Source: a virus (lineage: Duplodnaviria; Heunggongvirae; Uroviricota; Caudoviricetes). Taken from it: a stretch of 43,940 nt of DNA. A program made the position numbers and the translations under genes. This document shows positions 28,426-43,940 of this stretch, piece by piece; the first letter of the stretch is position 1; every line of letters begins with the position of its first letter. Where the stretch lies: IMG/VR virus record IMGVR_UViG_3300009826_000019, positions 1 to 43,940 of that record. One strand, written 5' to 3'. Under the pieces are notes generated by a model that did not search any database, had not been told where the DNA came from, and worked only from the letters and a program-made list of their open reading frames with translations.

Positions 28426-28429
28426 AAAT

Positions 28430-29200: not shown

Positions 29201-29205
29201 AAAAC

Positions 29206-29439
29206 ATGAAACCAATAGAAAAATATAAAGAACACCAATTAGAAAAATACTGTGGCGGAGGTCCAAAAGAACTCCAAGAACTCAAAACACAAGCGTTCTT
29301 AAACGGCTGGGAAGCAAGAAAAATTGAAGTAATATACCTCGTTTCATACCTGAAACTAATGTACGCCGCAAACCCACACCCCGATATAATGCAAACTGTT
29401 AGTGATATAATAGATAAATATGATAGCGAAATACTCTAA
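29206..29439 (+). CDS. Hypothetical protein
   Basis: Operon ORF. Confidence 0.6.
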   Translation: MKPIEKYKEHQLEKYCGGGPKELQELKTQAFLNGWEARKIEVIYLVSYLKLMYAANPHPDIMQTVSDIIDKYDSEIL

Positions 29440-29440
29440 A

Positions 29441-30001: not shown

Positions 30002-30150
30002 CCGAAACAGTATCACCAATATTTCTTGTTTGGTTCACACTAACCATTGCGTGGAATATCTATACAATAGTAAAAAATATAAACGAAATGGAAAATTTGG
30101 AAAAACAAAATAGAGAATGTAAATTTAAAAAATATAATGTTTATCCTTAA
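29998..30150 (+). CDS. Small membrane peptide, 50 aa (MTETVSPIFLVWFTLTIAW...)
   Basis: ATGA-coupled to the sigma gene; not in the track. Confidence 0.5.
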   Translation: MTETVSPIFLVWFTLTIAWNIYTIVKNINEMENLEKQNRECKFKKYNVYP

Positions 30151-30161
30151 ATAAAAATAAT

Positions 30162-30569
30162 ATGTCAGATTTAACAAAAAGACACCTAGAAACAATATCA
30201 CTCGTAGTAATACTATTTGGAACAGGTCTCTTCCTCACAAGTTGCTGCGGCGAAACCGAACCAACCCAAATAAACTTTTGGACAGGTTGGACAAGTTTCG
30301 TAGGTCTACTCCTTACATGGACAGCATTTAGATTCAAATCCAAATGTAGAAAACACTACCGAGACATTAATACAATGGGAATGAAAGTACATCATATCAT
30401 TTGGATAGCATGTGGATATGTATGGGTATTCGGAATGATATTCGGTGCTATAATGTGGATTGTAATTGGAATTAATCTACTTGACGATTGGGAACTCGAT
30501 GAAAAAGCATACCCACGTACAAAAAAATTCTTCCGCTGGTTAGGAAATATCCTCAATAAAAAAATCTAA
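30162..30569 (+). CDS. Three-TM membrane protein
   Basis: Three hydrophobic segments. Confidence 0.65.
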   Translation: MSDLTKRHLETISLVVILFGTGLFLTSCCGETEPTQINFWTGWTSFVGLLLTWTAFRFKSKCRKHYRDINTMGMKVHHIIWIACGYVWVFGMIFGAIMWIVIGINLLDDWELDEKAYPRTKKFFRWLGNILNKKI

Positions 30570-30575
30570 AATAAA

Positions 30576-31151
30576 ATGACAAAAAAACAATTTGGGCAAA
30601 AGAAATTTTATACTATCGTCTCATGGGGCGGCGAAACATACGACTTCGGACTACAATCCGTAGACATGGTAAATGCACGTATCGGTAGATTTGCAAAAGA
30701 AAAAGCAAATATCAAAATGTGGAAATCAACCAACAAAAAAGGATATCTCCACGAACTTGAATATCTACACAAAGAAGGTATTATGACCAAAATGTACCCC
30801 TCATTCCCCCAAATTGATAAATATATATACGGTCCCCTGGCGCAATGGTCAGCGCAGGTCACTCATAATGACAAGGTTTCAGGTTCGAGTCCTGAGGGGA
30901 CCACAATCGAACTTACTATTGGTCAAGAACTCATGAACGAATTTTATGATAGTGGGAATAATGGACTCATACCGAATATACACAAATTTGCTGAATTTTA
31001 TGATAATAAAATCTTGAATACTGACTACGTTCTCGAATTAGTACGATACTATATGAAAAAAAAATACCACCCGCATTGTACACTAATAGCAAACCAAAAC
31101 GTGGTGGAAATCCTTGAAGGTATAAAAACCAATGTGAAAAAAGAAGATTAA
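30576..31151 (+). CDS. Hypothetical protein whose reading frame runs through a tRNA gene
   Basis: 191-aa ORF; codons 86-110 coincide with the tRNA. Confidence 0.55.
   Translation: MTKKQFGQKKFYTIVSWGGETYDFGLQSVDMVNARIGRFAKEKANIKMWKSTNKKGYLHELEYLHKEGIMTKMYPSFPQIDKYIYGPLAQWSAQVTHNDKVSGSSPEGTTIELTIGQELMNEFYDSGNNGLIPNIHKFAEFYDNKILNTDYVLELVRYYMKKKYHPHCTLIANQNVVEILEGIKTNVKKED
30831..30903 (+). tRNA. tRNA with CAT anticodon, Ile2(lysidine)-like; elongator Met not excluded
   Basis: GGTCCCC/GGGGACC acceptor stem, GCGC/GCGC D stem, GTCA-CTCATAA-TGAC anticodon arm (G27.A43 mismatch), TCAGG-TTCGAGT-CCTGA T arm, A73, no encoded CCA. G1:C72 rules out initiator; C4:G69 and C5:G68 as in TilS substrates. Confidence 0.9.
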
Positions 31152-31790: not shown

Positions 31791-31886
31791 ATTGTTAAAA
31801 TATGTTAAAAAAGGGGAGGGTTTTTAACCCTCCAAATCCATTATGAAGTCTACAATGTCTCTGTACTTTTTGGGTGGGTACTCTCT
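31761..31886. repeat. 16-bp exact direct repeat TGGGTGGGTACTCTCT
   Basis: Copies at 31761-31776 (intergenic) and 31871-31886 (inside the 57-aa gene). Confidence 0.85.
31807..31833 (-). terminator. Intrinsic terminator overlapping the stop codon
   Basis: GGAGGGTT/AACCCTCC stem plus a U-run on the minus strand. Confidence 0.65.
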
Positions 31887-31997
31887 GAAAAAGGCTACCC
31901 TTGTGTCCCTACATTGCAACGCTCTGTAAAGTCTACCATAACTACCTTTTGAGGAGGCTAAACTTTTTATACCATTCATTATTTGCTCTTGTGTCAT
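31824..31997 (-). CDS. Small hypothetical protein, 57 aa (MTQEQIMNGIKSLASSKGSYGRLYRAL...DIVDFIMDLEG)
   Basis: Has its own promoter element upstream and terminator downstream; below the track cutoff. Confidence 0.75.
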   Translation of the reverse strand: MTQEQIMNGIKSLASSKGSYGRLYRALQCRDTRVAFFREYPPKKYRDIVDFIMDLEG

Positions 31998-32070
31998 TGT
32001 ATTATTATTTTATTGTTATACTATTTAATATAATATTTTCATGTTAATCCGATCTAGTTCATATATGGAT

Positions 32071-32092
32071 AAAAAAAAGGGGCTTTTGCCCC
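32071..32092 (-). terminator. Intrinsic terminator
   Basis: GGGGC-TTTT-GCCCC with an A8 tract on plus (U-run on minus). Confidence 0.75.
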
Positions 32093-32097
32093 GTTTT

Positions 32098-32313
32098 TTA
32101 TTCGTCTTCGCTTTCGTTGATAATTCCCATATCTGTTAATACAGACCTTAACGCTTCGCTATAAATATCGCTCTCTGCAATGTAGTCAATTAGACCTTGG
32201 GCGATATTTGCCACTGTGCTTTCGTCTATTGTTGTGGTTGCTTCGAGTTCGTTGTCTTCAATCCAACCCTCAACGTCGTTTTGGTTAATGCTTAATATTT
32301 CGTAAGTATTCAT
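32098..32313 (-). CDS. Very acidic small protein
   Basis: 18 D/E vs 1 R in 71 aa; has its own promoter element. Confidence 0.8.
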   Translation of the reverse strand: MNTYEILSINQNDVEGWIEDNELEATTTIDESTVANIAQGLIDYIAESDIYSEALRSVLTDMGIINESEDE

Positions 32314-32361
32314 TTTGTTTTAATTTTTTGATTCTTATACTTTTAATATAATATTTTCATA

Positions 32362-32631
32362 CTATTCCGATGTTATTCTCAAATCCATTATCAAACCGAT
32401 TTCCGCTTCTAATTCAGTTTCCAAAACTCCCATTTCGTCACCCAAATTTTTAAATACTTTTTTCAGTTCTCCGTATATTAGATATTTTTCGTCATAGTTG
32501 AAAAAATCAATTTCTTTGTGTTGCGAGTCATAAATACCCATATTTGATTTAAACAACTTATCTACAATCATTTTTTGATATTCAAGCACTATTAAATTTA
32601 ATGCTACTGTTTTGGCTACTTTGTTTGTCAT
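32362..32631 (-). CDS. Hypothetical protein
   Basis: Its last codons (TSE*) are encoded by the next promoter element. Confidence 0.7.
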   Translation of the reverse strand: MTNKVAKTVALNLIVLEYQKMIVDKLFKSNMGIYDSQHKEIDFFNYDEKYLIYGELKKVFKNLGDEMGVLETELEAEIGLIMDLRITSE

Positions 32632-32635
32632 GGTT

Positions 32636-32761
32636 TTATATTTTTTTATATAGTTTAAATTTGATTATTAAAAAGAGAAAAATAATGCTGAATAAAAGAA
32701 GTTTGTTGAAAAAGATTACTCCCAAACCTACCGCTAAACCTACTAATAATATTGTTTTCAT
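32636..32761 (-). CDS. Hydrophobic peptide, 41 aa (MKTILLVGLAVGLGVIFFNKLLLFSIIFLFLIIK...)
   Basis: First ORF after element 32817; not in the track. Confidence 0.55.
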   Translation of the reverse strand: MKTILLVGLAVGLGVIFFNKLLLFSIIFLFLIIKFKLYKKI

Positions 32762-32967
32762 ATTGATTGATTTTATTGATTATAATATTAAATATAATAT
32801 TTGTATGGTATTCCGATGCTTGTATACTCTTGTATGTTATTAAATGTTAAAATATGTTAAAATGTATTTTTGTACTATTTTAACATTTTATAGAAATACC
32901 ATGTTGCATCGGATTAGAATAATATTTTTATATTAGATAGTATAATAATCATTAAAAATATAAAGAC

Positions 32968-33186
32968 ATGGCAAAGCGCAAATTAAAAAGGGGTAGTGAG
33001 TTGAACGGTAGGTATAATCTACGAGGTAACGGTGACTATATGTTGGTACAGTATTACGAGGGGATTGACAGTTACTATTGCATAATCAATAGTGAGGCGG
33101 GGTTACAAGTGGGATTGAGTTTAGCACAACTTCGCAGACTTATCAAAGAACACTGCACCGACCCCCAAGCATTAAACCTCTTTTAA
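32968..33186 (+). CDS. Hypothetical cassette protein
   Basis: Element 32908 upstream, terminator downstream. Confidence 0.75.
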   Translation: MAKRKLKRGSELNGRYNLRGNGDYMLVQYYEGIDSYYCIINSEAGLQVGLSLAQLRRLIKEHCTDPQALNLF

Positions 33187-33198
33187 GAGGTTTTTTTT
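33174..33198 (+). terminator. Intrinsic terminator
   Basis: AAACCTCTT/AAGAGGTTT plus T-run. Confidence 0.7.
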
Positions 33199-33285
33199 CA
33201 AGTTTAAGACGAGATCGGATTAACATGGTAGGTTTATATTAAAAGTAAATAAAGGTTTAACAATAACAATTAAAAAGATAATATT

Positions 33286-33447
33286 ATGGCAAAGCGAATT
33301 TTTAAAAACGCCAACATAAGTATTATTGGTTGGCAAACAACGGAGGGATTTTTCCTCAGGGCATACGAAGACGCTACTTTCAAGGAAATGAGCGTTTGCG
33401 ACCCAAACATAACAGAGCGTGGTAACTTTTTTCAGAGGTGGTTTTAG
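33286..33447 (+). CDS. Small cassette protein, 53 aa (MAKRIFKNANISIIGWQTTEG...)
   Basis: Element 33214 upstream, terminator downstream; not in the track. Confidence 0.65.
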   Translation: MAKRIFKNANISIIGWQTTEGFFLRAYEDATFKEMSVCDPNITERGNFFQRWF

Positions 33448-33462
33448 TACCACCTTTTTTTT
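33436..33462 (+). terminator. Intrinsic terminator
   Basis: AGGTGGT/ACCACCT plus T-run. Confidence 0.75.
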
Positions 33463-33468
33463 ATATAA

Positions 33469-33482
33469 TACTCAAATGAGTA
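33469..33482. repeat. Palindrome TACTCAAATGAGTA, copy 1
   Basis: 1 nt before the GCATCGG element. Confidence 0.9.
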
Positions 33483-33553
33483 AGCATCGGATTAACACAC
33501 AAAGTTTATATTAGAGGTATAATCAAAAGTAATAATCTAAAAATAATAAAAAG

Positions 33554-33808
33554 ATGCACGTAGTAGAATTTAAAAGAACCATTAACATAGTTAATGCCGA
33601 CACAAAAGAAAACGATATGGACATTGAAAAATGGACAGCAAACGAAAACAATATCTACGGATATGTTGCAAAGGACAAAAAAGGAAACATTGTCGGCACG
33701 AAGTTCTTTATGGAACACGTAAAAATTAACGAAGTTGCAATGCACTTTCGCAGAGACATTCGACAAGGCAAAGTCAAAGGCACAACATTCAATCGTTGGG
33801 CAGCGTAA
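33554..33808 (+). CDS. Hypothetical cassette protein
   Basis: Element 33486 upstream. Confidence 0.75.
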   Translation: MHVVEFKRTINIVNADTKENDMDIEKWTANENNIYGYVAKDKKGNIVGTKFFMEHVKINEVAMHFRRDIRQGKVKGTTFNRWAA

Positions 33809-33815
33809 CAAAAAC

Positions 33816-33845
33816 AAAGGGGTCTAAAAAGACCCTTTTTTTTTT
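33816..33845 (+). terminator. Intrinsic terminator
   Basis: GGGTCT/AGACCC plus T10. Confidence 0.75.
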
Positions 33846-33929
33846 CTTTAATATTATTTGCATAGCATCGGAATAACATATAAATATTATATTTAAAGTA
33901 TAATCAATAATCTTTAAAACAATAATAAA

Positions 33930-34373
33930 ATGAATATGTTAAATACGGATGGATTTTACGGACACTTGCTTTTGGGTGTACAAACACGACACAGTATTGA
34001 GGTACAAAAAAATGTACGTGATATAGTTAATCTTGCAATAGAAAGCAACGAAAGACGTTACAAAAGTGTAGAAGAGTATCTTCAACAATTTGAAGACATA
34101 TACGAATATTTGAACGTGGAAAATATACAAGCGTTCAGAAACAACCTAAACAATTTTCACTTTTGCGTGGTTGAAAACAAAATTATTGTAATAACAAGTG
34201 AAAGCGTGGAATTTGAGGAAGACGGCGACTATATTGTATCCTTTGAGTTTATCATTGAGAGAGATATTTTAGACGGTACATTTACAGTAACAGCAGGAAC
34301 GGTACACAATCCACTGTTTGACGAAAAATGTGAAACTTTGATGCCTTGTATCCTTTGCCACATGAATATTTAA
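33930..34373 (+). CDS. Hypothetical cassette protein
   Basis: Element 33867 upstream. Confidence 0.75.
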   Translation: MNMLNTDGFYGHLLLGVQTRHSIEVQKNVRDIVNLAIESNERRYKSVEEYLQQFEDIYEYLNVENIQAFRNNLNNFHFCVVENKIIVITSESVEFEEDGDYIVSFEFIIERDILDGTFTVTAGTVHNPLFDEKCETLMPCILCHMNI

Positions 34374-34446
34374 AATTGGATTGATTGAAAGTAAAATAGC
34401 ACAAAAACGGTCTGTTGAGAAACACGCCGTTTTTCCTTTTTATATA

Positions 34447-34460
34447 TACTCAAATGAGTA
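34447..34460. repeat. Palindrome TACTCAAATGAGTA, copy 2
   Basis: 4 nt before the GCATCGG element. Confidence 0.9.
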
Positions 34461-34527
34461 CACTGCATCGGATAATGATATTAGAACTATATTAAGAGTA
34501 TATAATAACAATAATATTTTACTTACA

Positions 34528-34812
34528 ATGACAAAGAAGGAATATAAAACGTTGTATAACGCAATAGTTAATAAAATAGCACAAATTGACAAAGACATTG
34601 TTGAAGCCGCAGAACATAACCGTAGATGGAATAACAGTAGTTCGTTCCCTATGAACGCCTGTACAATAATGATTGATAGAGTGACAGTAACACACTATCG
34701 TAAAGTTTTTGAGTTGTTGGGATATACTGATATACCCGAACTTGATGCCGAAATTGAGGCACAAAAGGAAAGACTCGACTATTATCAAAGGTGGGGCAAA
34801 CTAATGGAGTAA
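34528..34812 (+). CDS. Hypothetical cassette protein (MTKKEYKTLYNAIV...)
   Basis: True start is likely ATG 34528, after element 34467. The track's TTG start at 34381 would read through the palindrome and promoter. Confidence 0.75.
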   Translation: MTKKEYKTLYNAIVNKIAQIDKDIVEAAEHNRRWNNSSSFPMNACTIMIDRVTVTHYRKVFELLGYTDIPELDAEIEAQKERLDYYQRWGKLME

Positions 34813-34866
34813 GCATCGGATAATGATATAAAAATTATATTTAGAATATAATTAAAATTAAATAAA

Positions 34867-35049
34867 ATGGTTAAGAAAAATTATCGTGTGATGTTAGATT
34901 GCAAAGACAAGGAACACGCAGAAGACCTTTTCAGAATATTTTCCGAATGTGTAACAAGGTGCATGGCGGTATATCTTTTGGAACAAACAGAAGTTTGCAC
35001 AGAGTGTGGAAACGAATTTACAGTAGTAAAAAATCATTATAAAAGTTAA
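34867..35049 (+). CDS. Small Cys-containing cassette protein
   Basis: Element 34815 upstream; CTEC motif. Confidence 0.65.
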   Translation: MVKKNYRVMLDCKDKEHAEDLFRIFSECVTRCMAVYLLEQTEVCTECGNEFTVVKNHYKS

Positions 35050-35053
35050 TAAA

Positions 35054-35182
35054 ATGGCAAAGACAATAAGACGTGAACGTGGTGAAAGTGAAAGGGATTT
35101 TTTGAGCAAAAAAAGACTTGTAATGAGTAAAAAAGGGGGCAAATATACCTTTTCATATACAGACGGTTCAGAATGGGAATGA
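35054..35182 (+). CDS. Small basic peptide, 42 aa (MAKTIRRERGESERDFLSKK...)
   Basis: 4 nt after the upstream stop, terminator downstream; not in the track. Confidence 0.5.
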   Translation: MAKTIRRERGESERDFLSKKRLVMSKKGGKYTFSYTDGSEWE

Positions 35183-35205
35183 TAGGGGTAAAACCCTATT
35201 TTTTT
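35182..35205 (+). terminator. Intrinsic terminator
   Basis: ATAGGG/CCCTAT plus T-run. Confidence 0.65.
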
Positions 35206-35276
35206 CTATCTACGAATTACATCGGAATAACATAAAAATATTATATTAACTAACATAACAATAAACATACAATAAA

Positions 35277-35483
35277 ATGGATATAGAGGAAATTTTAGAT
35301 GAGGTAAGAGACACGAAATATGTTTGTGAATATTGTCAAGGGGTAAATGTAATGCAACGCGGTTGGTTCGACCCCAACACTGGCGAGATATTTAGTAACG
35401 GACAAAACGACCGCCGAAGCGAAGGTTGGTGTAATGATTGTCAAAAAAATGTTTTCATAATTGAGAACTGTGCATCGGAATAA
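35277..35483 (+). CDS. Zinc-ribbon-like protein (CxxC...WCxxC)
   Basis: CEYC...WCNDC; its last codons (ASE*) lie inside element 35474. Confidence 0.75.
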   Translation: MDIEEILDEVRDTKYVCEYCQGVNVMQRGWFDPNTGEIFSNGQNDRRSEGWCNDCQKNVFIIENCASE

Positions 35484-35505
35484 CATATAAATATTATATT
35501 TAAAG

Positions 35506-35670
35506 CATAAGTAACAAGGTAAGGTTCGGACAATAGTTTGACCGTTTGAGTTGAATAATAAAACTTTCAAAGTAAGGGACTTTTAGACTAATAAAACTTT
35601 TTAAGTAAGGTTTAACACAAAAGCGAAAACGAGTTGTATTAAATTGAATAATAAAACCTTGTTACTTTTT
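35506..35670 (+). ncRNA. Candidate structured small RNA in an ORF-less cassette
   Basis: No ATG between 35501 and 35686. 12-bp terminal stem AAGTAACAAGGT(35509-20)/ACCTTGTTACTT(35656-67) followed by a T-run; internal 22-nt repeat pair. Confidence 0.5.
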
Positions 35671-35742
35671 CATAAAACTTTGCTGTGCATCGGATTAACA
35701 TTCTAAAATTATATTTAGAATATAATCAATAATATCAGTAAA

Positions 35743-36084
35743 ATGAAAATAAGTAACAATATAGAGTTTAACCCGATAAGACAAACAATTTTAGTCAATG
35801 GGGAAAAAATGAGTTGGGTGCGCCGCCAGAATGGTAGGGATAGACTTTGCAACCAATTAAGCACAAAGGAAAGTCAATTATTAGAGTTTCTTTTGCAAAA
35901 CAAAAACAATGTGGTTAGCGTTGAAAATACCTTACAAACATTATGGGTAGACGTTAATTTTAACAACAAGCGAAGCGCAGACGTTTATATAAACTTTCTC
36001 CGCAACTTGTTAGGCAAGTGGATAAAGATAGAAACAGTTTATGGTGGGGGCTGGAAACTAACCACCATAACGACAAAAATATAA
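35743..36084 (+). CDS. Stand-alone OmpR/PhoB-type winged-helix DNA-binding domain (Trans_reg_C; RprY-like)
   Basis: LSTKESQLLEFLLQNKNNVVS...LW...RSADVYINFLRNLL...IETVYGGGWKL; no receiver domain. Confidence 0.85.
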   Translation: MKISNNIEFNPIRQTILVNGEKMSWVRRQNGRDRLCNQLSTKESQLLEFLLQNKNNVVSVENTLQTLWVDVNFNNKRSADVYINFLRNLLGKWIKIETVYGGGWKLTTITTKI

Positions 36085-36113
36085 GGTTTATTGATTTTTG
36101 ATTATTATGATTG

Positions 36114-36147
36114 AAAAACGCCTACCCGCAGTTGGTAGGTGTTTTTT
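36114..36147 (+). terminator. Intrinsic terminator
   Basis: AAAACGCCTACC/GGTAGGTGTTTT plus T-run. Confidence 0.75.
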
Positions 36148-36231
36148 CTTTTTTGAAAATTGGTATAGCATCGGAATAGCATGAAAATATTATATTTAAG
36201 GTATAATAATAATCATAAAATACATAATACA

Positions 36232-36573
36232 ATGGCACGTAAAATTAAAAATAGAAATTTAGTAATTGACGGCACGACCCCAAAATACATTCGTTGTTAT
36301 TCAAACGAGGGGCGCAAAGACGAAACTTTGGACTGCATTACAGTAGTTTTCACAAAGAAAAAAATGAACGGTCAGTTTTTCTACATTAGTGCAAGCAAAA
36401 CAGGTAGCGGAGTTTATACCTACGGGCACTCCGACGTACAAATTGACAGACCCAGCTACGGTCATTTGGGTAGAAAAATAGAGTTTTCGGAACTCACAAA
36501 GGAACTGCAAAGACAGATTTTACCCGACTACTGTTTATTTTGGAATTGCCACAACGAGGTTTGGGGAGTTTAA
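36232..36573 (+). CDS. Hypothetical cassette protein (MARKIKNRNL...)
   Basis: The track start 36181 lies inside the promoter spacer; ATG 36232 is in frame. Confidence 0.75.
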   Translation: MARKIKNRNLVIDGTTPKYIRCYSNEGRKDETLDCITVVFTKKKMNGQFFYISASKTGSGVYTYGHSDVQIDRPSYGHLGRKIEFSELTKELQRQILPDYCLFWNCHNEVWGV

Positions 36574-36586
36574 CTCCCCCTTTTTT
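36563..36586 (+). terminator. Intrinsic terminator
   Basis: GGGGAGTT/AACTCCCC plus T6. Confidence 0.75.
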
Positions 36587-36609
36587 AACAACAAATAAAA
36601 ATTACAGAT

Positions 36610-36786
36610 ATGGTATACGTATTATTTATGACAGACCAATGGCAGAGCCGACAGTCAAGAGTATTTTGCGGAGTTTTTGACTCTTATGAACGAGCCGAAG
36701 CGGCGGCTATTCGCAACGAAAATGAGTTGTGGAAACAAACCTATGTAATCGTTCCCACTGAATTAAATAAATTTAACGAAATATAA
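36610..36786 (+). CDS. Small protein, 58 aa (MVYVLFMTDQWQSRQSRVFCGVFDSYERAE...)
   Basis: A-rich leader; not in the track. Confidence 0.7.
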   Translation: MVYVLFMTDQWQSRQSRVFCGVFDSYERAEAAAIRNENELWKQTYVIVPTELNKFNEI

Positions 36787-36788
36787 TA

Positions 36789-36802
36789 TACTCAAATGAG
36801 TA
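36789..36802. repeat. Palindrome TACTCAAATGAGTA, copy 3
   Basis: Contains the ATG (36796) of the next ORF. Confidence 0.9.
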
Positions 36803-37137
36803 ACATAATAACATTTTTTTTACAGGACTTTGAGGCACTTACTTATAAGACCCTATTTGATTTTTTTGAATGGGGTAACGCCGACAAAAATAAAGAGATT
36901 TACAGAAAAACCTTTGAAGAAAATCATAGGTTAGCCAAGGAACGAGTCAACCTCAAAGTAGGGGATAAAATCCGTTTAAACTACCCTCCAGGCACTTCTT
37001 TTAGTTGGACAAATGGAGAGTATTACATACGTGAAATTGACGGTAGTACGTTGAAAATATCCATATCATTAGACGAGGATATCACAGATTGTTATAGTTG
37101 CATTGGGATATTAAATAGTTATATGGAAATAGTCTGA
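36796..37137 (+). CDS. Hypothetical protein
   Basis: 113-aa ORF starting within the palindrome. Confidence 0.65.
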   Translation: MSNIITFFLQDFEALTYKTLFDFFEWGNADKNKEIYRKTFEENHRLAKERVNLKVGDKIRLNYPPGTSFSWTNGEYYIREIDGSTLKISISLDEDITDCYSCIGILNSYMEIV

Positions 37138-37205
37138 CAAGCATCGGAATAACATCAAAAGATTATATTGAATAGTATAACAATAACATAATAAAAAGTA
37201 ATAAA

Positions 37206-37448
37206 ATGACGACTTACGAATTAACCCCGACAAACGGGCGCAAAAGTTTCTACGGAAAAGCAATAGTATTAACAGACGAGGCGGGAAACCGTACACTGTT
37301 ATCCTACGGGACACGAATAATGCGAATTAACGCAGACAGTTCAATGGTACGAATTTGGAACGATTGGACAACAACAACAGGAAACCATGTCGCAAGTTTT
37401 AGCGGACTGAACAAAAAAGGTTTTATGGCACTACCATTAGCCGAATAA
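37206..37448 (+). CDS. Cassette protein, paralog of 38895-39161
   Basis: Shared EL.PTNGRKSFYGKA, LLSYGT.IM, W..TTGNH.ASF..LNKK.F. Confidence 0.8.
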   Translation: MTTYELTPTNGRKSFYGKAIVLTDEAGNRTLLSYGTRIMRINADSSMVRIWNDWTTTTGNHVASFSGLNKKGFMALPLAE

Positions 37449-37454
37449 AAAATT

Positions 37455-37478
37455 AACTCCCAAAAGGGAGTTTTTTTT
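37455..37478 (+). terminator. Intrinsic terminator
   Basis: AACTCCC/GGGAGTT plus T-run. Confidence 0.75.
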
Positions 37479-37655
37479 GTGCCATTTATTAAATGTTAAA
37501 ATAGTATAAAAAATTTTATTAACCTATTTTAACAATTTAATTTATACTATTTTAACACTCTATTTTTGTTACAAATATATACTATTTTTGTAACAAGCAT
37601 CGGAATAATATGTTAAAATTATATTTAATATTATAATCAATAAAACAATAACACA

Positions 37656-37919
37656 ATGGATAAAATAAAAATGGAACGCTATATTGATAGCGAAATTGCA
37701 GAATACCAAGCGGCAAAGGGTGACTTCAAAAGGGCATTAGAAAACCTTGAAAAGTTTAAAAGTCAATACGCAAAAATGTACAACCTACTCAATCAGTTGT
37801 TAGTAACTACTGAAACAGACGACCTTATTGACGCAAATATAAAGTTGTTACAACGTTTGGCGTATGACAAAGAGTTTAATGAGTTGCACGAAATATCAAA
37901 AAAAGTACACAGGTTTTAA
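37656..37919 (+). CDS. Helical/coiled-coil cassette protein
   Basis: Element 37599 upstream. Confidence 0.75.
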   Translation: MDKIKMERYIDSEIAEYQAAKGDFKRALENLEKFKSQYAKMYNLLNQLLVTTETDDLIDANIKLLQRLAYDKEFNELHEISKKVHRF

Positions 37920-37920
37920 A

Positions 37921-37943
37921 AAAGGGGCGTAAGCCCTTTTTTT
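37921..37943 (+). terminator. Intrinsic terminator
   Basis: AAGGGGC/GCCCTTT plus T-run. Confidence 0.7.
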
Positions 37944-38016
37944 ATATTCCAATATATACATCGGAATAACATTAAAATCTTATATTTAATATTATAATAA
38001 TCAAATAATTAAAGAC

Positions 38017-38250
38017 ATGACAAGGAATATATATGTAATTTATGTGAATGGCGAAGCCATGTACGCTTTATACGATTACGGTCGAATTACAAATTGGATA
38101 AACGTTTTTCAACGCCACAGAAGTAATTGCCCACGTTTGTACAAAGGAAACAGTTATCATGTTGAAGTTTCAACCGACGCTTACAATAATGAGAGCGGAG
38201 ACTTTGTTGGAACGGTAAAACGTGAAACAGTTGCAAGTTTCACAGTATAA
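38017..38250 (+). CDS. Hypothetical cassette protein
   Basis: Element 37960 upstream. Confidence 0.75.
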   Translation: MTRNIYVIYVNGEAMYALYDYGRITNWINVFQRHRSNCPRLYKGNSYHVEVSTDAYNNESGDFVGTVKRETVASFTV

Positions 38251-38264
38251 TACTCAAATGAGTA
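38251..38264. repeat. Palindrome TACTCAAATGAGTA, copy 4
   Basis: Starts directly after the TAA; 2 nt before GCATCGG. Confidence 0.9.
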
Positions 38265-38325
38265 TAGCATCGGAATAACATTAAGATATTATATTTGATA
38301 GTATAACAATAATAAAAATAATACA

Positions 38326-38562
38326 ATGAATCCATATAATTCATATAGCGTTGTTTATAGTAAAAATGGTGGGGAATTAAAATATCAAACCACAGTTAAT
38401 TTCGCCACAAAAAAGGAGGCGAGAGCGCGGTTAGAAATATTAAAGTTGGACTGTAGGGCAAATAGAATGTGTGTTGATGTGGTGAACATGAAAAACCGTT
38501 TTATTGCATACTACGCAAATGGTGTAACATGGGACTGTCGTATTATTGAAGGTTGGTTATAA
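38326..38562 (+). CDS. Hypothetical cassette protein
   Basis: Element 38269 upstream. Confidence 0.75.
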   Translation: MNPYNSYSVVYSKNGGELKYQTTVNFATKKEARARLEILKLDCRANRMCVDVVNMKNRFIAYYANGVTWDCRIIEGWL

Positions 38563-38600
38563 TCTATATTGAATAACATAACAATAATAAATATTTCAAA

Positions 38601-38831
38601 ATGAGAGCATTTAAAACAGAAAAAAGTGATTTTACGTTTCGTTTCAGCGGATACGGACACTATGAAGTTACATACACAAGCCCCGTTACGGGCAAGCGTT
38701 GGACTACGGTTACAAATGATATGCCGTTAATTGACGAAACCAAAAACACAGACGAACCGAAGCGCAAAGATTTGAATCGCTTGAAACATATCTGCAAATG
38801 CAAACCACCTTGTGTAAGGTGGTTGAGCTAA
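38601..38831 (+). CDS. Hypothetical cassette protein (SDFTFRFSGYGHYEVTYTSPVTGK...)
   Basis: Preceded by only the TATATT half of the element (38565-70). Confidence 0.8.
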   Translation: MRAFKTEKSDFTFRFSGYGHYEVTYTSPVTGKRWTTVTNDMPLIDETKNTDEPKRKDLNRLKHICKCKPPCVRWLS

Positions 38832-38894
38832 CATCGGAATAATATCTGAATGTTATATTGGATAGTATAGTAATAATCATAAAAATATAATAAA

Positions 38895-39161
38895 ATGGTA
38901 CTTGAAAGAATTGAATTGAAGCCAACAAACGGGCGCAAAAGTTTCTACGGAAAAGCCCAAGTTGAATACCACGACAATAACACAGGCGAAATTGGTTTGT
39001 CGGACAGAGTTTTGTTGTCTTATGGCACAAAGATAATGACGATAAAATACGGTGGCAAAATGGTACGGCATTGGAACGGTTGGACTAAAACAACGGGAAA
39101 CCATATTGCAAGTTTTGCCGACCTCAACAAAAAAGCGTTTTTGGAATTGGAATTAGTATAA
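38895..39161 (+). CDS. Cassette protein, paralog of 37206-37448
   Basis: See paralog; element 38833 upstream. Confidence 0.8.
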   Translation: MVLERIELKPTNGRKSFYGKAQVEYHDNNTGEIGLSDRVLLSYGTKIMTIKYGGKMVRHWNGWTKTTGNHIASFADLNKKAFLELELV

Positions 39162-39181
39162 ACAATAAAATACAAACAAAA

Positions 39182-39349
39182 ATGAATTGTGCAAATTGCA
39201 AAAGTGCTATACGCACCATAAAAGTAAAACGGATAAACAGATATGCTGTATGTAGCAAATGTTATAAAGCATTTGTTAAAATACAACAAGGCATAACATT
39301 TGACGGGTTACAAGTTCCAAAAGACAAACAATGGTGGAACTTTGAATAA
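39182..39349 (+). CDS. Small zinc-finger-like protein, 55 aa (MNCANCK...CSKCYK...WWNFE)
   Basis: Two CxxC pairs; terminator downstream; not in the track. Confidence 0.65.
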   Translation: MNCANCKSAIRTIKVKRINRYAVCSKCYKAFVKIQQGITFDGLQVPKDKQWWNFE

Positions 39350-39356
39350 TAAAATG

Positions 39357-39382
39357 AGCGGCAAATAAGCCGCTTTTTTTTT
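39357..39382 (+). terminator. Intrinsic terminator
   Basis: AGCGGC/GCCGCT plus T-run. Confidence 0.75.
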
Positions 39383-39794
39383 GTTTACGGCTATTTATAT
39401 TCAGTAATAACATTTGGCATATCATTTGAATAACATTGTGAATTTCGCCAAGCCCCACGAAACACAGACCAACGGAGTCACCGTTTCAAATGTGGATACG
39501 CGCTTACAGAAAAACACAAATAAGACCTCAAATAAACGTTAAAATGATATAACTCAATTTAATAGGACAAAAACCTATATATTTTTTTTTGCTTCGTTAT
39601 AATGTAAATATGACGAATATTTTTTGTTTCTATTAAATGTTAAAATAGGTTAAATTGGTTTCTCAATTATAAAATGTTAAAATAGTTTAAATAATATTTT
39701 TATACTATTTTAACATTTAAAGATTATCCCCCATAGCATCGGAATAACATTTTACTTTTATATTAGATAGTATAATCAATTAAAATTAAATAAT

Positions 39795-39950
39795 ATGTTA
39801 GTATGTAAAAAATGTAACTCCGAAAAAGTTTTACAGAAGTTTTGGGTCAACCCGAATGATATGGAAATTGACAGTATTGTTATCAATGATAACAAAGGTA
39901 ATTGGTGCGATGAGTGCGAAGACTATACTGAATTGGTAGAACAGAAATAG
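39795..39950 (+). CDS. Zinc-ribbon-like protein, 51 aa (MLVCKKCNSEKVLQKFWVNPN...WCDECEDY)
   Basis: Same CxxC...W..PN...WCxxC layout as 35277-35483; not in the track. Confidence 0.75.
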   Translation: MLVCKKCNSEKVLQKFWVNPNDMEIDSIVINDNKGNWCDECEDYTELVEQK

Positions 39951-40012
39951 CATCGGAATAATATTTAAAAATTATATTTAATAGTATAATAATCAATTAA
40001 ATATCATTAAAC

Positions 40013-40345
40013 ATGGAATGGAAATATAATAATTTGACGATTACTCAGGAAGAGCTTGAGAGCGTGGCAGAATTTTATGCAGAAAATTATCTGTATGATA
40101 CGGCTAATGGAACCCGACCCGAAAGACCTTTACAAGCGTTTGAAGACGATTTTGGTTCCACTGATGATGCGGAGGCATACTTGGATTTGTACGCAGAGTT
40201 TTTTGCTCTATGTGAGAAATACAAAAACGACCCCGAACTTATCGCAAAGTACACGAAAAACGAAGATGACGAGGAAGATGAGTTTGACGAAGATGACGAA
40301 CTAGCGGAATACGGTCGCACAAAGTTGTGGCGTTGGGCTTATTAA
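40013..40345 (+). CDS. Very acidic, aromatic-rich protein (DNA-mimic candidate)
   Basis: 32 D/E vs 10 K/R in 110 aa; element 39952 upstream. Confidence 0.8.
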   Translation: MEWKYNNLTITQEELESVAEFYAENYLYDTANGTRPERPLQAFEDDFGSTDDAEAYLDLYAEFFALCEKYKNDPELIAKYTKNEDDEEDEFDEDDELAEYGRTKLWRWAY

Positions 40346-40374
40346 GATAAAATATTATTTATTGAATTATCCTT

Positions 40375-40406
40375 GGGGGATTAGGGAAACCTAAATCCCC
40401 TTTTTT
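40375..40406 (+). terminator. Intrinsic terminator with GAAA loop
   Basis: GGGGATTAGG-GAAA-CCTAAATCCCC plus T6. Confidence 0.75.
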
Positions 40407-40557
40407 GTGGTTGTATTAAATGTTAAAATAGGTTAAAATAATAGCATCCCATAAAATGTTAAAATAGTATAAATAATATTATTAAACTATTTTAACATTA
40501 TATTATAACGAACATCCGAAATGATATTAAAATGATATTCGGAATAATATTATAATG

Positions 40558-40571
40558 TACTCAAATGAGTA
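40558..40571. repeat. Palindrome TACTCAAATGAGTA, copy 5
   Basis: Located in the ORF-less 40346-40760 island. Confidence 0.9.
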
Positions 40572-40821
40572 TGCAGAATAAAATTTTAAATGCTATTTTT
40601 ATTAAATGTTAAAATAGTAAAAAATTTTATACCCTCAACACATCACAATCATATTTTCCTATCATTTGCCGATAATTCTAATGATATTTTGTATATATAT
40701 CATTATCATTATATTAAAATGATATTCAAAAAATAATTAGATACACAAAAATCTCAGATTTGCATCGGAATAACATTTTCATATTATATTTAATATTATA
40801 ATCAATAATAATTTAAAAGAT

Positions 40822-41157
40822 ATGAACTATAGATTTCAAAGATTTCCAGGTCACCCGCAGGGTTTGGGTTGTTTTTCAATTTTTAATGAGGTGGGGGATT
40901 TTATTCATAGTTTTGGCAACCCCGTAGCAATTTTGGATATGCCGAGTCCGTTGGATATACAGCAGGCGTTGGAGGCGAAATTTCCAGGTTGTGAGTTGTT
41001 GGAATGTATGCGCGAGGGTCGTTATGGTTCGACAATTACGATAACGGATATGAAGATTCCAACGGCGGATGGTATGATTTCCGTTCCTGTTTCTTACCTT
41101 GAAGAGCCGCACGATGGGGACTACGAAAATGGTTGGTACACAGCCATAATAATATAA
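40822..41157 (+). CDS. Hypothetical cassette protein
   Basis: Element 40764 upstream. Confidence 0.75.
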   Translation: MNYRFQRFPGHPQGLGCFSIFNEVGDFIHSFGNPVAILDMPSPLDIQQALEAKFPGCELLECMREGRYGSTITITDMKIPTADGMISVPVSYLEEPHDGDYENGWYTAIII

Positions 41158-41159
41158 AC

Positions 41160-41182
41160 AAGGGGGTTAACCCCCTTTTTTT
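41160..41182 (+). terminator. Intrinsic terminator
   Basis: AAGGGGG-TTAA-CCCCCTT plus T-run. Confidence 0.75.
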
Positions 41183-41259
41183 ATATTTGGGTAGTTTGCA
41201 TCGGATTAGTATATTAAAATTATATTTAGGTATATAATAACAATAAAATTTTAATCAAA

Positions 41260-41364
41260 ATGGGAGTATTAGGTTTATTCGTAGGTAAGTTTATTTTATG
41301 GGCGTTGTTGAGTGCTTTCTGCATTTGGGTTTTAGTAAAGTGTGATGATGTTTTGAGCCGATAG
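41260..41364 (+). CDS. Single-TM peptide, 34 aa (MGVLGLFVGKFILWALLSAFCIWVLVK...)
   Basis: Lies between elements 41200 and 41366; not in the track. Confidence 0.6.
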   Translation: MGVLGLFVGKFILWALLSAFCIWVLVKCDDVLSR

Positions 41365-41429
41365 CATCGGAATAACATTAAGATATTATATTTGATAGTA
41401 TATAACAATAACAAATAAAATTTTAAACA

Positions 41430-41867
41430 ATGGTAAATTTAGGTCGTGTAACAGATGCGCAGAAGCCCGTATTTTATTACGTGTTTCAACTGACAAAAAA
41501 GATTGTTTTTGAGGTACAGTATTACTACTGCGGTGGTAATAGATACCCACACTTTAGCACACAAGCCAACGTTTTTAATCAGCCAAAAAGTGATTGGGAA
41601 CGTTGCGGGCAGGGGCAAAAGGAGGTTTTTGTTGGATTTGAGGCGGCTATGGAGTTTTACAAAAAGTGGGATTATTGTCACTGCAAAGACTTATCCAGGG
41701 AGCAATACAGTGAGATGGTTTGGGATTTGGAATGTTTGACGGTCTATTATAATCACTTATTTTCAAACGAGAGAGAGTTTTCGTTTTGGGATAAGGCGGA
41801 GTTCACGAAACGGAGACCGAAGGGAATAAGGGCGATAAAAAGGGATAAAATGGCTTTGGGTATTTAA
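41430..41867 (+). CDS. Hypothetical cassette protein
   Basis: Element 41366 upstream. Confidence 0.8.
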   Translation: MVNLGRVTDAQKPVFYYVFQLTKKIVFEVQYYYCGGNRYPHFSTQANVFNQPKSDWERCGQGQKEVFVGFEAAMEFYKKWDYCHCKDLSREQYSEMVWDLECLTVYYNHLFSNEREFSFWDKAEFTKRRPKGIRAIKRDKMALGI

Positions 41868-41884
41868 TACCCAAGCCTTTTTTT
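41852..41884 (+). terminator. Intrinsic terminator
   Basis: GGCTTTGGGTATT/AATACCCAAGCC plus T-run. Confidence 0.75.
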
Positions 41885-41963
41885 ATATTATATGTTTGTT
41901 GCATCGGAATAATATTTTACTTTTATATTTAGGGTATAATAATAATCATAAAAATTAAAGATA

Positions 41964-42254
41964 ATGAGACAAAAGGTATATGGTTTTTTGTGGATACAGT
42001 CTACGGGTATGCGTTTTAGGAATGGCGAGATGCGGTTTGATGGCGAAAAGAAACCTATCCCAGCGTGTGGTAGTGATGCGGTTATATGGTTGGATGGTCG
42101 TTGGAGTTTGGAAAATATGGAAAGTTTTATACGTTCTATTATTGCCCAGCGCGATACGTATAAGAGGGTTGTTGGTTATTCCATAGGTTATTTGGATTGC
42201 TATGACCCAGAGGACAAAAAGATACAGAAAATTTTAAAATACACAGCGATATGA
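41964..42254 (+). CDS. Hypothetical cassette protein
   Basis: Element 41903 upstream. Confidence 0.75.
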   Translation: MRQKVYGFLWIQSTGMRFRNGEMRFDGEKKPIPACGSDAVIWLDGRWSLENMESFIRSIIAQRDTYKRVVGYSIGYLDCYDPEDKKIQKILKYTAI

Positions 42255-42553
42255 TAAATAAAAATATGTATGGGATATCCATGGGTCGTGGTGCTGCGGG
42301 TATCTATGTAAAAAACTTTTATGTTGATGGTCGTGTTGACAATCAATTTGCTTTTAAGCGTTGGTATATTGAGTGCATTATGGATAAATTTTTTCCTTTT
42401 TTTGAACGTGGTTTAACGTTTCATATTAAGGGTAAAAAGTCGGAACGTGTTACACGTTTGGAGTTGGAAAGTTATTTGTCGGGGTATTGCAAAAGGTATC
42501 CAAACCAGCGTGAGAATTGCGACAAATTATTGTCGGGTTTGGTTTGGGATTGA
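42251..42553 (+). CDS. Hypothetical protein
   Basis: ATGA-coupled to the upstream ORF. Confidence 0.7.
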   Translation: MINKNMYGISMGRGAAGIYVKNFYVDGRVDNQFAFKRWYIECIMDKFFPFFERGLTFHIKGKKSERVTRLELESYLSGYCKRYPNQRENCDKLLSGLVWD

Positions 42554-42558
42554 TATAA

Positions 42559-42572
42559 TACTCAAATGAGTA
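42559..42572. repeat. Palindrome TACTCAAATGAGTA, copy 6
   Basis: 5 nt after the TGA of the upstream ORF. Confidence 0.9.
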
Positions 42573-42696
42573 TATAATAAGGTTTAAAGTATGGCGGAGT
42601 TATATAATTTCGCTATGCTTTTTTCATGGCATCGGAATAATATGTAAATATTATATTGAGAGCATAACAATAACAATAATCAAAAACTTAATAAAA

Positions 42697-43152
42697 ATGA
42701 CAGCATACGAAAAAAGTAACAATATTGAGAGTGTAGAATTTAGTGTTTCGGCGGCGGCAAAAAAGGCGTACAAGGATTTATTAAACAGTGGTGATGCTTC
42801 GGCGAAGGAACGGCAGGTATTATCGAATAAATTAGTTTTGGAGTTGTGCAGGTGTTTCAAAATACGTAATGTTAGTGAGGTTCGAGTTTGCAATGTGGCA
42901 CAGGATAGTAAGACGGTAAATGGGCGTTGTGTGCGTAAAACAATGGGTAAATATATGGTTTCACAAAACATGATAATTGTGTTTAATAAAACGGCGATAC
43001 GAAAAAACACAGTTGCAATAAAAAGTTTTACGGATACTTTGTTACATGAATTTTGCCACGCTTTAGATTACTTACATTACAAATTGGGTGACAGTTTGCA
43101 TACGGCGGGTTTTTACAAGCGTATAACGAGTTTAAAGATAAAATTGGGATAA
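42697..43152 (+). CDS. SprT-like zinc metallopeptidase-domain protein
   Basis: TLLHEFCHALD...SLHTAGFYKR (HExxH plus a downstream His). Confidence 0.65.
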   Translation: MTAYEKSNNIESVEFSVSAAAKKAYKDLLNSGDASAKERQVLSNKLVLELCRCFKIRNVSEVRVCNVAQDSKTVNGRCVRKTMGKYMVSQNMIIVFNKTAIRKNTVAIKSFTDTLLHEFCHALDYLHYKLGDSLHTAGFYKRITSLKIKLG

Positions 43153-43170
43153 CATATAGGAAAATAAAGA

Positions 43171-43205
43171 AAATGGTTTATATGGCAAATATGAACCATT
43201 TTTTT
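43171..43205 (+). terminator. Intrinsic terminator
   Basis: AAATGGTTTATAT/ATATGAACCATTT plus T-run. Confidence 0.65.
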
Positions 43206-43238
43206 ACAGTATTAGCAATATAATAAAGATTTGAATAA

Positions 43239-43493
43239 ATGAGAAACGAGCAAATAATATATTCACAGGATTTTCAATATCAATATGATTATTGGGGGCG
43301 GCGTTTGTCGCAGTGGTCTAAAAAACAGTGTGCATGGGTACGTTTTAGGCAATACAAAAACGATTGGTTTATTGTTAATGACTCTCGCTTTCCGATACCG
43401 TATGAAAGTAAAACTGCGGCGGCTTTGGCGAATCATGAGGGGACAAACGGTCATTATGGGACAAACACTATAATTGTAGTTACATCGGAATAA
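43239..43493 (+). CDS. Hypothetical protein
   Basis: Its last codons (TSE*) lie inside element 43484. Confidence 0.65.
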   Translation: MRNEQIIYSQDFQYQYDYWGRRLSQWSKKQCAWVRFRQYKNDWFIVNDSRFPIPYESKTAAALANHEGTNGHYGTNTIIVVTSE

Positions 43494-43542
43494 CATTTTA
43501 CTTTTATATTTGATAGTATAACAATATAAATAATAAAACAAT

Positions 43543-43863
43543 ATGAATGAATTGGTAGAGGCGGCTTTTGTTAGACACGCGCAACAAATTAGTGTTTTAC
43601 GTTGGCATGAGCGTTTTGTAAGTCGTGAAACGGTTTTAGATTTTAGGAATAGGGTTGTTTCGGATTACATAAATAACCCCGATGGTACGATTGAAGTTTT
43701 ACGTGTTAAGGGTGGTTTTATCAGTTCCGAAATAGGTTGTTTTGACTATGAGGATGACCAACTATTATCTTTTGAATGGGATAAAAGTGGGGAGTTGGTA
43801 AGGGTACATGACCCTTTAAATAGTGAGTGCGATGCAAATTGTTTTCTTTGTAATTTTCAATAA
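43543..43863 (+). CDS. Hypothetical cassette protein
   Basis: Element 43484 upstream. Confidence 0.75.
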   Translation: MNELVEAAFVRHAQQISVLRWHERFVSRETVLDFRNRVVSDYINNPDGTIEVLRVKGGFISSEIGCFDYEDDQLLSFEWDKSGELVRVHDPLNSECDANCFLCNFQ

Positions 43864-43940
43864 GGTTTGAAATGGTAAGAGCAGGAAAAAGGGATTACGG
43901 TTTTTTGTGGGGTATGGCTTCGGCTAACCCCTCGAAGTTA

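Follow-up and report, generated by a model that had tools for sequence, protein, structure and literature searches.

Which transcription machinery reads a promoter-like element that recurs dozens of times in a giant phage? The question is raised by the first 43,940 bp (hereafter the window) of the 107,940-bp IMG/VR record IMGVR_UViG_3300009826_000019, which belongs to a giant (jumbo) uncultivated phage from the termite gut. The record itself covers the initial 29% of a 367,985-bp contig, and all whole-record counts given below cover these 108 kb. From about 31.8 kb onward, the window carries an array of small genes preceded by copies of a bipartite element, ATCGGA-N15-TATATT. These elements are very probably transcription promoters of a class private to the phage. 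From the sequence, we tentatively favour a reading somewhat short of probable, in which host core RNA polymerase carrying a phage-encoded sigma factor of the extracytoplasmic function (ECF) type would read them as a delayed-early regulon with positive feedback.

The promoter element and its array

In the window, the pattern ATCG-N17-TATATT matches 30 times, against 0.33 expected and a largest count of 2 in shuffled sequence. The whole record, scanned with ATCGGA-N15-TATAWT, holds 67 copies at this one spacing and a single copy each with N14 and N16; in the N17 notation the count is 66, against one each for N16 and N18. An earlier reading made from the sequence alone (the sequence-only reading) had described the spacing as near-invariant, which the scan confirms. 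It had also proposed a genome-wide motif scan; with a position weight matrix, such a scan gives a bimodal score distribution of 67 exact sites, 3 near-misses, and nothing between them. One near-miss (102522-102548, minus strand) has TATTTT for TATATT and lies ~22 nt 5' of the first tRNA of a minus-strand tRNA cluster.

Conservation extends beyond the 12 positions fixed by the search pattern. In motif numbering, it includes G-1 (46/67), C0 (56), T8 (61), A9 (67), A10 (55), A12 (64), T13 (61), A17 (55), and T21 (63), which makes the conserved element longer than a pair of boxes. The 7-nt spacer varies almost freely, with 51 distinct sequences among the 67 copies, and the mean pairwise difference is 0.09 in the boxes versus 0.58 in the spacer. 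Near-invariant boxes around a free spacer indicate that the boxes are kept by selection and not merely by recent copying. Together with the rigid spacing and the sharp score distribution, this pattern is characteristic of an element recognised by a protein of the sigma-70 family.

The position of the transcription start follows from genes that lack a leader. At three copies (14293 on the minus strand, 27623 on the plus strand, and 86893 on the minus strand), the ATG of a long open reading frame (ORF) stands exactly 7-8 nt after TATATT. The start of one such leaderless ORF (13567-14259) is confirmed by an orthologue of the same length, 53% identical, in a sister phage described below. In a cassette that has no ORF, a 12-bp terminal stem of the predicted RNA begins 1-2 nt past the predicted start and ends at a U-run. 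Leaderless genes and RNA stem together place TATATT as the -10 box, at -12 to -7. On this assignment, the element would consist of a 15-bp upstream block, GCATCGGAWTAAyAT, at -35 to -21, the free 7-nt spacer, T-13, the invariant TATATT, and a start-site TATAA at about -1 to +4. The sequence-only reading had noted a second TATAA box. A TATAA, CATAA, or TATAG does follow 5-6 nt past TATATT in 55/67 copies, but the start-site region is a better interpretation of this box than a second -10. The candidate in which this box serves as the true -10 was rejected because of the leaderless genes and a register shared with the sigmaA promoters of the sister phage.

An ATG-initiated ORF of at least 30 aa follows 64 of the 67 copies, usually 25-39 nt after TATATT, in agreement with the short ORFs originally described. 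The A-rich leaders without a Shine-Dalgarno (SD) sequence are likewise real: the SD core appears in 0/62 leaders, which contain 66% A and 2% G. Adenine occupies -3 in 52/62, -6 in 50/62, and -12 in 58/62 of them. Translation in Bacteroidota is SD-less and favours A-3 (PMC6847099), and these leaders fit that type. Downstream of the start-site box, the cassette anatomy would thus end in an A-rich, SD-less leader of 20-30 nt adapted to Bacteroidota ribosomes.

The exact-motif scan reproduces the 26 copies counted earlier within 31824-43940, of which three face left (first bases 32053, 32371, and 32817) and 23 face right, from 32908 onward. The centre of divergence, placed earlier at ~32.85 kb, falls at ~32.86 kb. 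The array extends past the window edge (~43.9 kb). One rightward array runs from 32,908 to 69,664 with 59 copies, a median spacing of 592 nt, and ~101 ORFs with a median length of 88 aa. Because it continues to 69.7 kb, the window shows only its first third. The description as single-gene cassettes holds for 13 of the 23 rightward intervals in the window; seven hold two ORFs, one holds three, and two hold none. The copies in the window, located by motif scan, and the features tied to them are as follows.

31824-43940, both strands: window part of the array, 26 promoter copies and ~38 small ORFs
32027-32053, minus: promoter copy ATCGGA-N15-TATATT, followed by ORF 31824-31997
32345-32371, minus: promoter copy, ORF 32098-32313
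32791-32817, minus: promoter copy, innermost leftward member of the divergent pair
32908-32934, plus: promoter copy, first rightward, ORF 32968-33186
33214-33240, plus: promoter copy
33486-33512, plus: promoter copy, with palindrome TACTCAAATGAGTA 3 nt upstream
33867-33893, plus: promoter copy
34467-34493, plus: promoter copy
34815-34841, plus: promoter copy
35221-35247, plus: promoter copy
35474-35500, plus: promoter copy of the ORF-less cassette
35507-35675, plus: candidate RNA of ~165 nt, 12-bp end-to-end stem and U-run, overall folding z-score only -1.46
35689-35715, plus: promoter copy 5' of the winged-helix gene
35743-36084, plus: stand-alone OmpR/PhoB-type winged-helix protein, 113 aa (Trans_reg_C, 51 bits)
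36170-36196, plus: promoter copy
37143-37169, plus: promoter copy
37599-37625, plus: promoter copy
37960-37986, plus: promoter copy
38269-38295, plus: promoter copy
38833-38859, plus: promoter copy
39738-39764, plus: promoter copy
39952-39978, plus: promoter copy
40764-40790, plus: promoter copy
41200-41226, plus: promoter copy
41366-41392, plus: promoter copy
41903-41929, plus: promoter copy
42631-42657, plus: promoter copy
43484-43510, plus: promoter copy
13217-13243, minus: isolated promoter copy 5' of 12201-13166
14267-14293, minus: isolated promoter copy; gene 13567-14259 leaderless, ATG 7 nt after TATATT
17936-17962, plus: isolated promoter copy 5' of 17982-18797

The ORF-less interval with the RNA candidate spans 35474-35686 on the plus strand. 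Terminators had been described as frequent. A hairpin lies within 75 nt upstream of 13/26 copies in the window, but of only 20/67 copies overall. Between 24.0 and 43.9 kb, 38 terminator-like hairpins are predicted against 12.2 expected, including those listed here.

33174-33193, plus: intrinsic terminator-like hairpin (hairpin prediction)
33434-33457, 33816-33839, 35181-35200, 36113-36147, and 36563-36579, plus: terminator-like hairpins
37455-37472, 39356-39375, 41160-41177, and 41855-41875, plus: terminator-like hairpins
31815-31833 and 32079-32092, minus: terminator-like hairpins

Among the 20 cassette ORFs scanned, Pfam gives hints for three: the OmpR-type winged helix, a SprT-like protein, and a DUF4363 match below cut-off. 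The SprT-like metalloprotease domain lies in ORF 42697-43152 (plus strand), at 28 bits just above cut-off. A host-takeover or anti-defence role for the cassette genes is an assumption. The palindrome TACTCAAATGAGTA occurs in 17 copies within 32-70 kb, all on the plus strand (for example, 33469-33482, 34447-34460, and 38251-38264), and nine of the 17 lie 3-58 nt 5' of a promoter copy. A scan of IMG/VR for this palindrome gave, among the matches listed, mostly chance singles.

The 27-mer of the copy at 38269 recurs identically at 41366 and 44770. Termite-gut metagenomes of at least three studies contain 100%-identical pieces of the array in public runs; the public contigs are DNA, identical to the window and carrying no variant information. 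Their assembly breaks fall exactly on the promoter repeats, and contig joints are explained by other repeat copies. Look-ups of the array and of a 1.9-kb part of it listed no RNA run. Identical distant 27-mers and breaks at repeats indicate that the repeats are surely recombination substrates too. Megablast searches and tblastn with the giant ORFs described below found no match to deposited phages. The exact-motif scan of IMG/VR returned 0 matches, and the corresponding metagenome scan gave, among the matches listed, only chance-level singles lacking the extended consensus. In 285 bacterial genomes, no enrichment of the bipartite pattern was found, with at most five exact matches per genome and none carrying the extended consensus; this sample represents the phylum of an Ignavibacteria metagenome-assembled genome (MAG) and probably not the order of the host.

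Promoter classes and the sister phage

The Bacteroidota sigmaA promoter combines a -33 TTTG with a -7 box, TAnnTTTG, at -12 to -5 (PMC9723704). The phage itself carries such signals. Host-type GTATATTTG boxes, each a perfect Bacteroidota -7 box, occur eight times against 2.65 expected, 13-51 nt before several genes. One sigmaA-type promoter is of particular relevance here.

14306-14337, plus: sigmaA-type promoter, TTTG-N20-TATATTTG, heading the rightward block of 14.4-31.2 kb that includes the sigma gene

Another box, CTATTTATA, is present in 14 copies against 5.7 expected; 11 of them lie 20-40 nt 5' of genes between 72 and 108 kb. Portal, head protease, and tail tube genes are among those with such a box upstream, and this placement before structural genes defines a late class. 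The host-type boxes in the phage genome point to a host with the Bacteroidota promoter type and make the ATCGGA element a third, distinct class.

The element contains no match of the TTGACA/TATAAT type and none of the Bacteroidota type. As the sequence-only reading had stated, its upstream box is unlike the -33 TTTG, the consensus at that place being T-A-G-C-A. The likeness to the -7 box noted in the same reading is only partial: TA at -12/-11 and TT at -8/-7 are kept, but T at motif position 28 occurs in 33/67 copies and G at position 29 (G-5) in 13/67. The 67 sites conform neither to the -7 TAnnTTTG nor to a TTTG 19-21 nt upstream. T-13 is near-invariant in the element (63/67 sites), and the host-type boxes of the same genome have G there. 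The view that this class differs from the housekeeping type of the host is therefore upheld, with genuine sigmaA promoters in the phage's own genome and in the sister phage available for comparison.

That sister, IMGVR_UViG_3300009784_000001, derives from the same termite-gut sample; it has terminal repeats, a length of 359,943 bp, and a rating of complete. It was recovered through a portal search, the two portals being 50-51% identical. Its complete genome holds 0 copies of ATCGGA-N15-TATATT and no counterpart of the ECF sigma; its two sigma-70-family proteins are longer and group-3-like. Upstream regions in the sister are dominated by TATCTTTG and TACCTTTG, together with the same late box, TATTTATA. 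Approximately 50 aligned cassettes between 39 and 105 kb carry TTATTAACA-TTTG-N19-TAyCTTTG, which is a canonical sigmaA promoter with an extra upstream element. This TTATTAACA lies ~20 nt 5' of the -33 TTTG and resembles an UP element; the TAACAT within it is common to the ATCGGA block, at another distance from the -10.

Ten ATCGGA-driven genes have homologues in the sister array, and four to five of these stand directly behind a sigmaA box. The winged-helix protein has a sister homologue behind a sigmaA box. In all 6 of 6 cases compared, a late gene has the late box in either phage, and both phages keep an 11-nt distance between the start-site box and the first T of the -10. Since layout, start site, leader, and late promoters are common, only the part contacted by a sigma factor or activator has been exchanged. 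The two phages form a natural experiment: from one sample and with a common architecture, late promoters, and leaders, one employs textbook host promoters, whereas the other employs a private promoter and encodes an unusual ECF sigma.

Two giant ORFs on the minus strand, 1367-6931 and 7275-12167 (1854 and 1630 aa), are conserved in the sister at 27% and 36% identity, and the latter has a late-type box upstream in both phages. They were considered as a hidden polymerase and rejected, given no Pfam or PHROG match, no DxDxD motif, and conservation in a sister that lacks the element.

A candidate sigma factor and competing readers

We infer the reader of the element and the timing of its expression from gene content and position. 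The sequence-only reading had proposed a virion-borne or host factor; this is not supported, and that reading had overlooked a phage gene for an ECF-type sigma 2.9 kb from the array.

27623-27649, plus: promoter copy heading the sigma operon; first gene leaderless, ATG 7 nt after TATATT
27657-31151, plus: tightly packed sigma operon
29420-30001, plus: phage ECF-type sigma, 193 aa, sigma2 and sigma4 domains, proposed reader of the element (profile matches)

Membership in the ECF family is supported by PF04542 (66 bits), PF08281 (53 bits), and TIGR02937 (108 bits, cut-off 42.9). The protein consists of sigma2 and sigma4 domains only, falls in no NCBIfam equivalog, and finds its best PDB matches in ECF sigmas of the AlgU/SigH, SigW, and SigE types. 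Region 2 is intact (W77, N84, D88, R91). The recognition helix of sigma4 is atypical, with R173Q (R in 126/149 homologues), R/K175H (140/149), and V167A, so a non-canonical -35 is expected. The sigma is a sequence singleton: among 1.84 billion representatives, only the protein itself scores below 1e-30, and the next match is 38-39% identical. Its best phage match (37%) belongs to the crAss-like phage cr10_1, whose first 50 kb hold no comparable motif. Contigs of the best homologues were too short, or the motif was not found in them.

Two properties of an ECF regulon are present, namely a bipartite motif with a fixed spacer and a copy of that motif 5' of the sigma's own operon. Autoregulation is typical of ECF sigmas, according to Staron 2009 as cited in PMC9723704. 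By our own estimate, the chance of a copy heading this operon is roughly 7%. The operon encodes, in order, a 175-aa acidic protein, a 75-aa Cys-rich protein, an RpiB fusion, a 77-aa protein, the sigma, two membrane proteins of 50 and 135 aa, and a 191-aa ORF. No plus-strand terminator is predicted between 24.0 and 31.8 kb.

A delayed-early cascade can be outlined on this basis. Host sigmaA holoenzyme would transcribe the few host-type promoters, including the one at 14306 that heads the block with the sigma gene. The phage sigma would then load on host core RNA polymerase and read 67 or more ATCGGA promoters, including that of its own operon, thereby creating positive feedback. Consequently, ~100 small accessory genes between 32 and 70 kb would be switched on as a delayed-early set insulated from host sigmaA. 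A host-type promoter (14306-14337) heads the block that contains the sigma gene, and the element (27623) heads its operon. Given this placement, such a cascade is no less likely than immediate-early expression. Jumbo phages of group 2 (T4-capsid-type), the group at issue here, have no polymerase of their own and encode sigmas (Iyer et al., PMC7824862). In phiEco32 and 7-11, promoter positions are kept and the promoter sequence changes with the sigma (PMC8948821).

Several points weigh against this reading. Its link between sigma and promoter would rest on co-occurrence in one genome as compared with one sister. The element has neither the AAC of the -35 nor the CGT of the -10 that mark canonical ECF promoters (PMC9723704), and its own -10 consists of A and T only. 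The host-type box TATATTTG that the phage itself carries begins with the same six bases, TATATT. The 15-bp block near -28 would fit an activator-dependent sigmaA promoter, with MotA-box geometry or PhoB-like, about equally well. One of the array genes is for a stand-alone winged-helix protein of the OmpR/PhoB type, though the sister has one too. The block of the sigma gene has a single host-type promoter, 15 kb upstream of that gene. Other sigmas or factors may be encoded in the remaining ~260 kb, given the two group-3-like proteins of the sister. Moreover, the sister homologues are driven by sigmaA and presumably immediate-early, so dependence on a phage sigma would shift their timing.

The strongest competitor, which we consider unlikely but deserving of serious weight, holds that host sigmaA reads TATATT as a weakened -7 and that a phage activator sitting on the block from -35 to -21 makes up for the missing -33 contact. 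Such promoters would act like the middle promoters of T4, where a MotA box operates with sigma70 remodelled by AsiA, or like those under PhoB-type activation. The identity of TATATT with the start of TATATTTG and a start-site register matching the sister sigmaA promoters favour this view, as does the upstream block, which exceeds a usual -35 hexamer in length and lies nearer the start site. A promoter that has lost G-5 and the -33 TTTG likewise looks like an activator-dependent one, and the winged-helix protein offers an alternative candidate reader of the box. However, that protein is common to a sister without the element, and neither the MotA C-terminal domain nor AsiA (PF09158, PF09010) was matched in the 108 kb or the complete sister, with ~260 kb of this phage lying outside that scope. 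T-13, as opposed to G in the host-type boxes, hints at another reader of the -10, and activation of sigmaA would leave a phage-specific ECF sigma without a visible regulon. The near-invariant T-13 and the otherwise orphaned sigma tilt the balance toward the phage-sigma model. A reader encoded in the remaining ~260 kb, either another phage sigma or an unrecognised phage RNA polymerase, appears rather improbable. The record covers 29% of the genome, the two further sigma-70-family proteins of the sister suggest that the clade carries several sigmas, and highly diverged phage polymerases escape Pfam models. Orthologous extra sigmas would nevertheless imply shared promoters, which the absence of ATCGGA copies in the sister contradicts. 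Searches for Rpb1, Rpb2, and T7-type polymerase domains found none in the complete sister or the 108 kb, the two giant ORFs conserved in the sister show no DxDxD-type motif, and a two-part element with -35 and -10 boxes suits a sigma on host core polymerase.

Timing and function admit further alternatives. Immediate-early expression requiring no new phage protein, the scenario of the sequence-only reading, would depend on an alternative sigma or other factor of the host or on a virion-delivered factor, possibly the ECF sigma itself. The small, orphan, terminator-punctuated genes resemble the hyperplastic early regions of T4 (PMC2839356), and the homologous cassettes of the sister use sigmaA promoters and are thus presumably immediate-early. 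Host ECF sigmas, on the other hand, are normally sequestered and would form an unreliable basis for 67 promoters; the 285 bacterial genomes, a sample probably not of the host order, show no enrichment of the pattern; and packaging of a sigma is not known for T4-type phages. This scenario is judged improbable. In a more specific form, the phage would have exchanged the host-sigmaA promoters of its entire accessory array (over 100 genes) for a private promoter read by its own ECF-type sigma, with that sigma or another reader carried in the virion and a private programme that would be immediate, independent of the host housekeeping sigma, and invisible to it and its targeters; this form is quite improbable. 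That the elements are no promoters at all, serving only as recombination or mobility sites or as operators, is highly improbable. Identical 27-mers at distant sites and assembly breaks at repeats could be read in this way, but orientation strictly matches the downstream genes, 64/67 copies lie at a fixed short distance 5' of an ORF, and the -10-like box stands at leaderless distance from three ATGs. The element also replaces bona fide sigmaA promoters of the sister, and copies precede a tRNA cluster and an RNA cassette as well.

The neighbourhood of the sigma gene holds further features. An anti-sigma gene usually lies directly downstream of an ECF sigma gene. Here, an ATGA stop/start overlap leads into 29998-30150, encoding a 50-aa protein with one hydrophobic helix, followed by 30162-30569, encoding a 135-aa multi-pass membrane protein. 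Neither has a family match, and two neighbours in the sigma operon, looked up in the ESM Atlas, yielded no lead. At the operon end, an Rfam tRNA match (63.7 bits, 30831-30903, plus strand) is nested in the 191-aa ORF 30576-31151. The RpiB fusion (28430-29200, plus strand) joins a ribose-5-phosphate isomerase domain to a 120-aa N-terminal extension, and its nearest bacterial relatives are MAGs of Ignavibacteria and Zixibacteria. Further upstream, 14683-15660 (plus strand) encodes a Thg1-like tRNA-His guanylyltransferase (PHROG 4717, 1.7e-64).

Relation to known promoter systems

Transcription programmes of Bacteroidota phages are almost unstudied, and group 2 jumbo phages have merely been inferred to use their own sigmas. 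The present case offers a testable sigma-promoter pair that comprises a core polymerase, a 193-aa protein, and a 45-bp DNA element. If the proposed pairing is correct, it would supply an orthogonal promoter/sigma part for Bacteroides engineering and an example of an early or hyperplastic region rewired wholesale to a phage sigma.

Compared with the Bacteroidota sigmaA promoters, the element has in common TA at -12/-11, TT at -8/-7, the register of the start site, and SD-less, A-rich leaders with A-3. The sigmaA consensus differs in having TTTG at -33 and G-5 and in lacking both the invariant T-13 and a 15-bp GC-containing upstream block. Canonical ECF promoters are similarly bipartite and rigidly spaced, with the motif at the sigma's own operon, but AAC at its usual position and CGT are both absent from the element and its -10 is AT-only. 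The T4 middle promoters have a compatible geometry, with a host-like -10 and a conserved box near -30 in place of the -35, in a phage of T4-capsid type and with many copies within early regions. Their box sequence is nonetheless unrelated, and MotA and AsiA were not detected in the 108 kb or the sister. AsiA is present in group 2 jumbo phages (PMC7824862).

The sequence-only reading drew an analogy with the promoter-early stem-loop (PeSL) cassettes of T4-type phages (Arbiol et al. 2010, PMC2839356), and as regards the architecture of a hyperplastic array it holds. In both, dozens of near-identical promoter units are scattered among small orphan genes; those of PeSL are strong and often come with stem-loop terminators. 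The repeats are long enough that they could mediate modular shuffling, with identical 27-mers at distant sites and assembly breaks at the repeats seen here. PeSL promoters are of the host sigma70 type, however, and this defining feature is absent from the array, whose promoters are not of the host sigmaA type. An adjacent terminator hairpin accompanies only 20/67 copies.

The middle promoters of SPO1 depend on a phage sigma, gp28. The phiEco32 gp36 promoter is tAATGTAtA, and that of Salmonella phage 7-11 gp47 is GTAAtg-N16-aCTA (PMC8948821). In the latter two phages, an ECF-like phage sigma redirects host core polymerase to a private promoter, a link proposed for the termite-gut phage. They have 6-10 mapped promoters that serve middle or late genes, compared with the 67 or more copies and ~100 small accessory genes described here, which the sister phage leaves to host sigmaA. 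By analogy, then, the mechanism would most resemble the phage-sigma regulons of SPO1 gp28, phiEco32 gp36, and 7-11 gp47, from which it differs in scale and targets.

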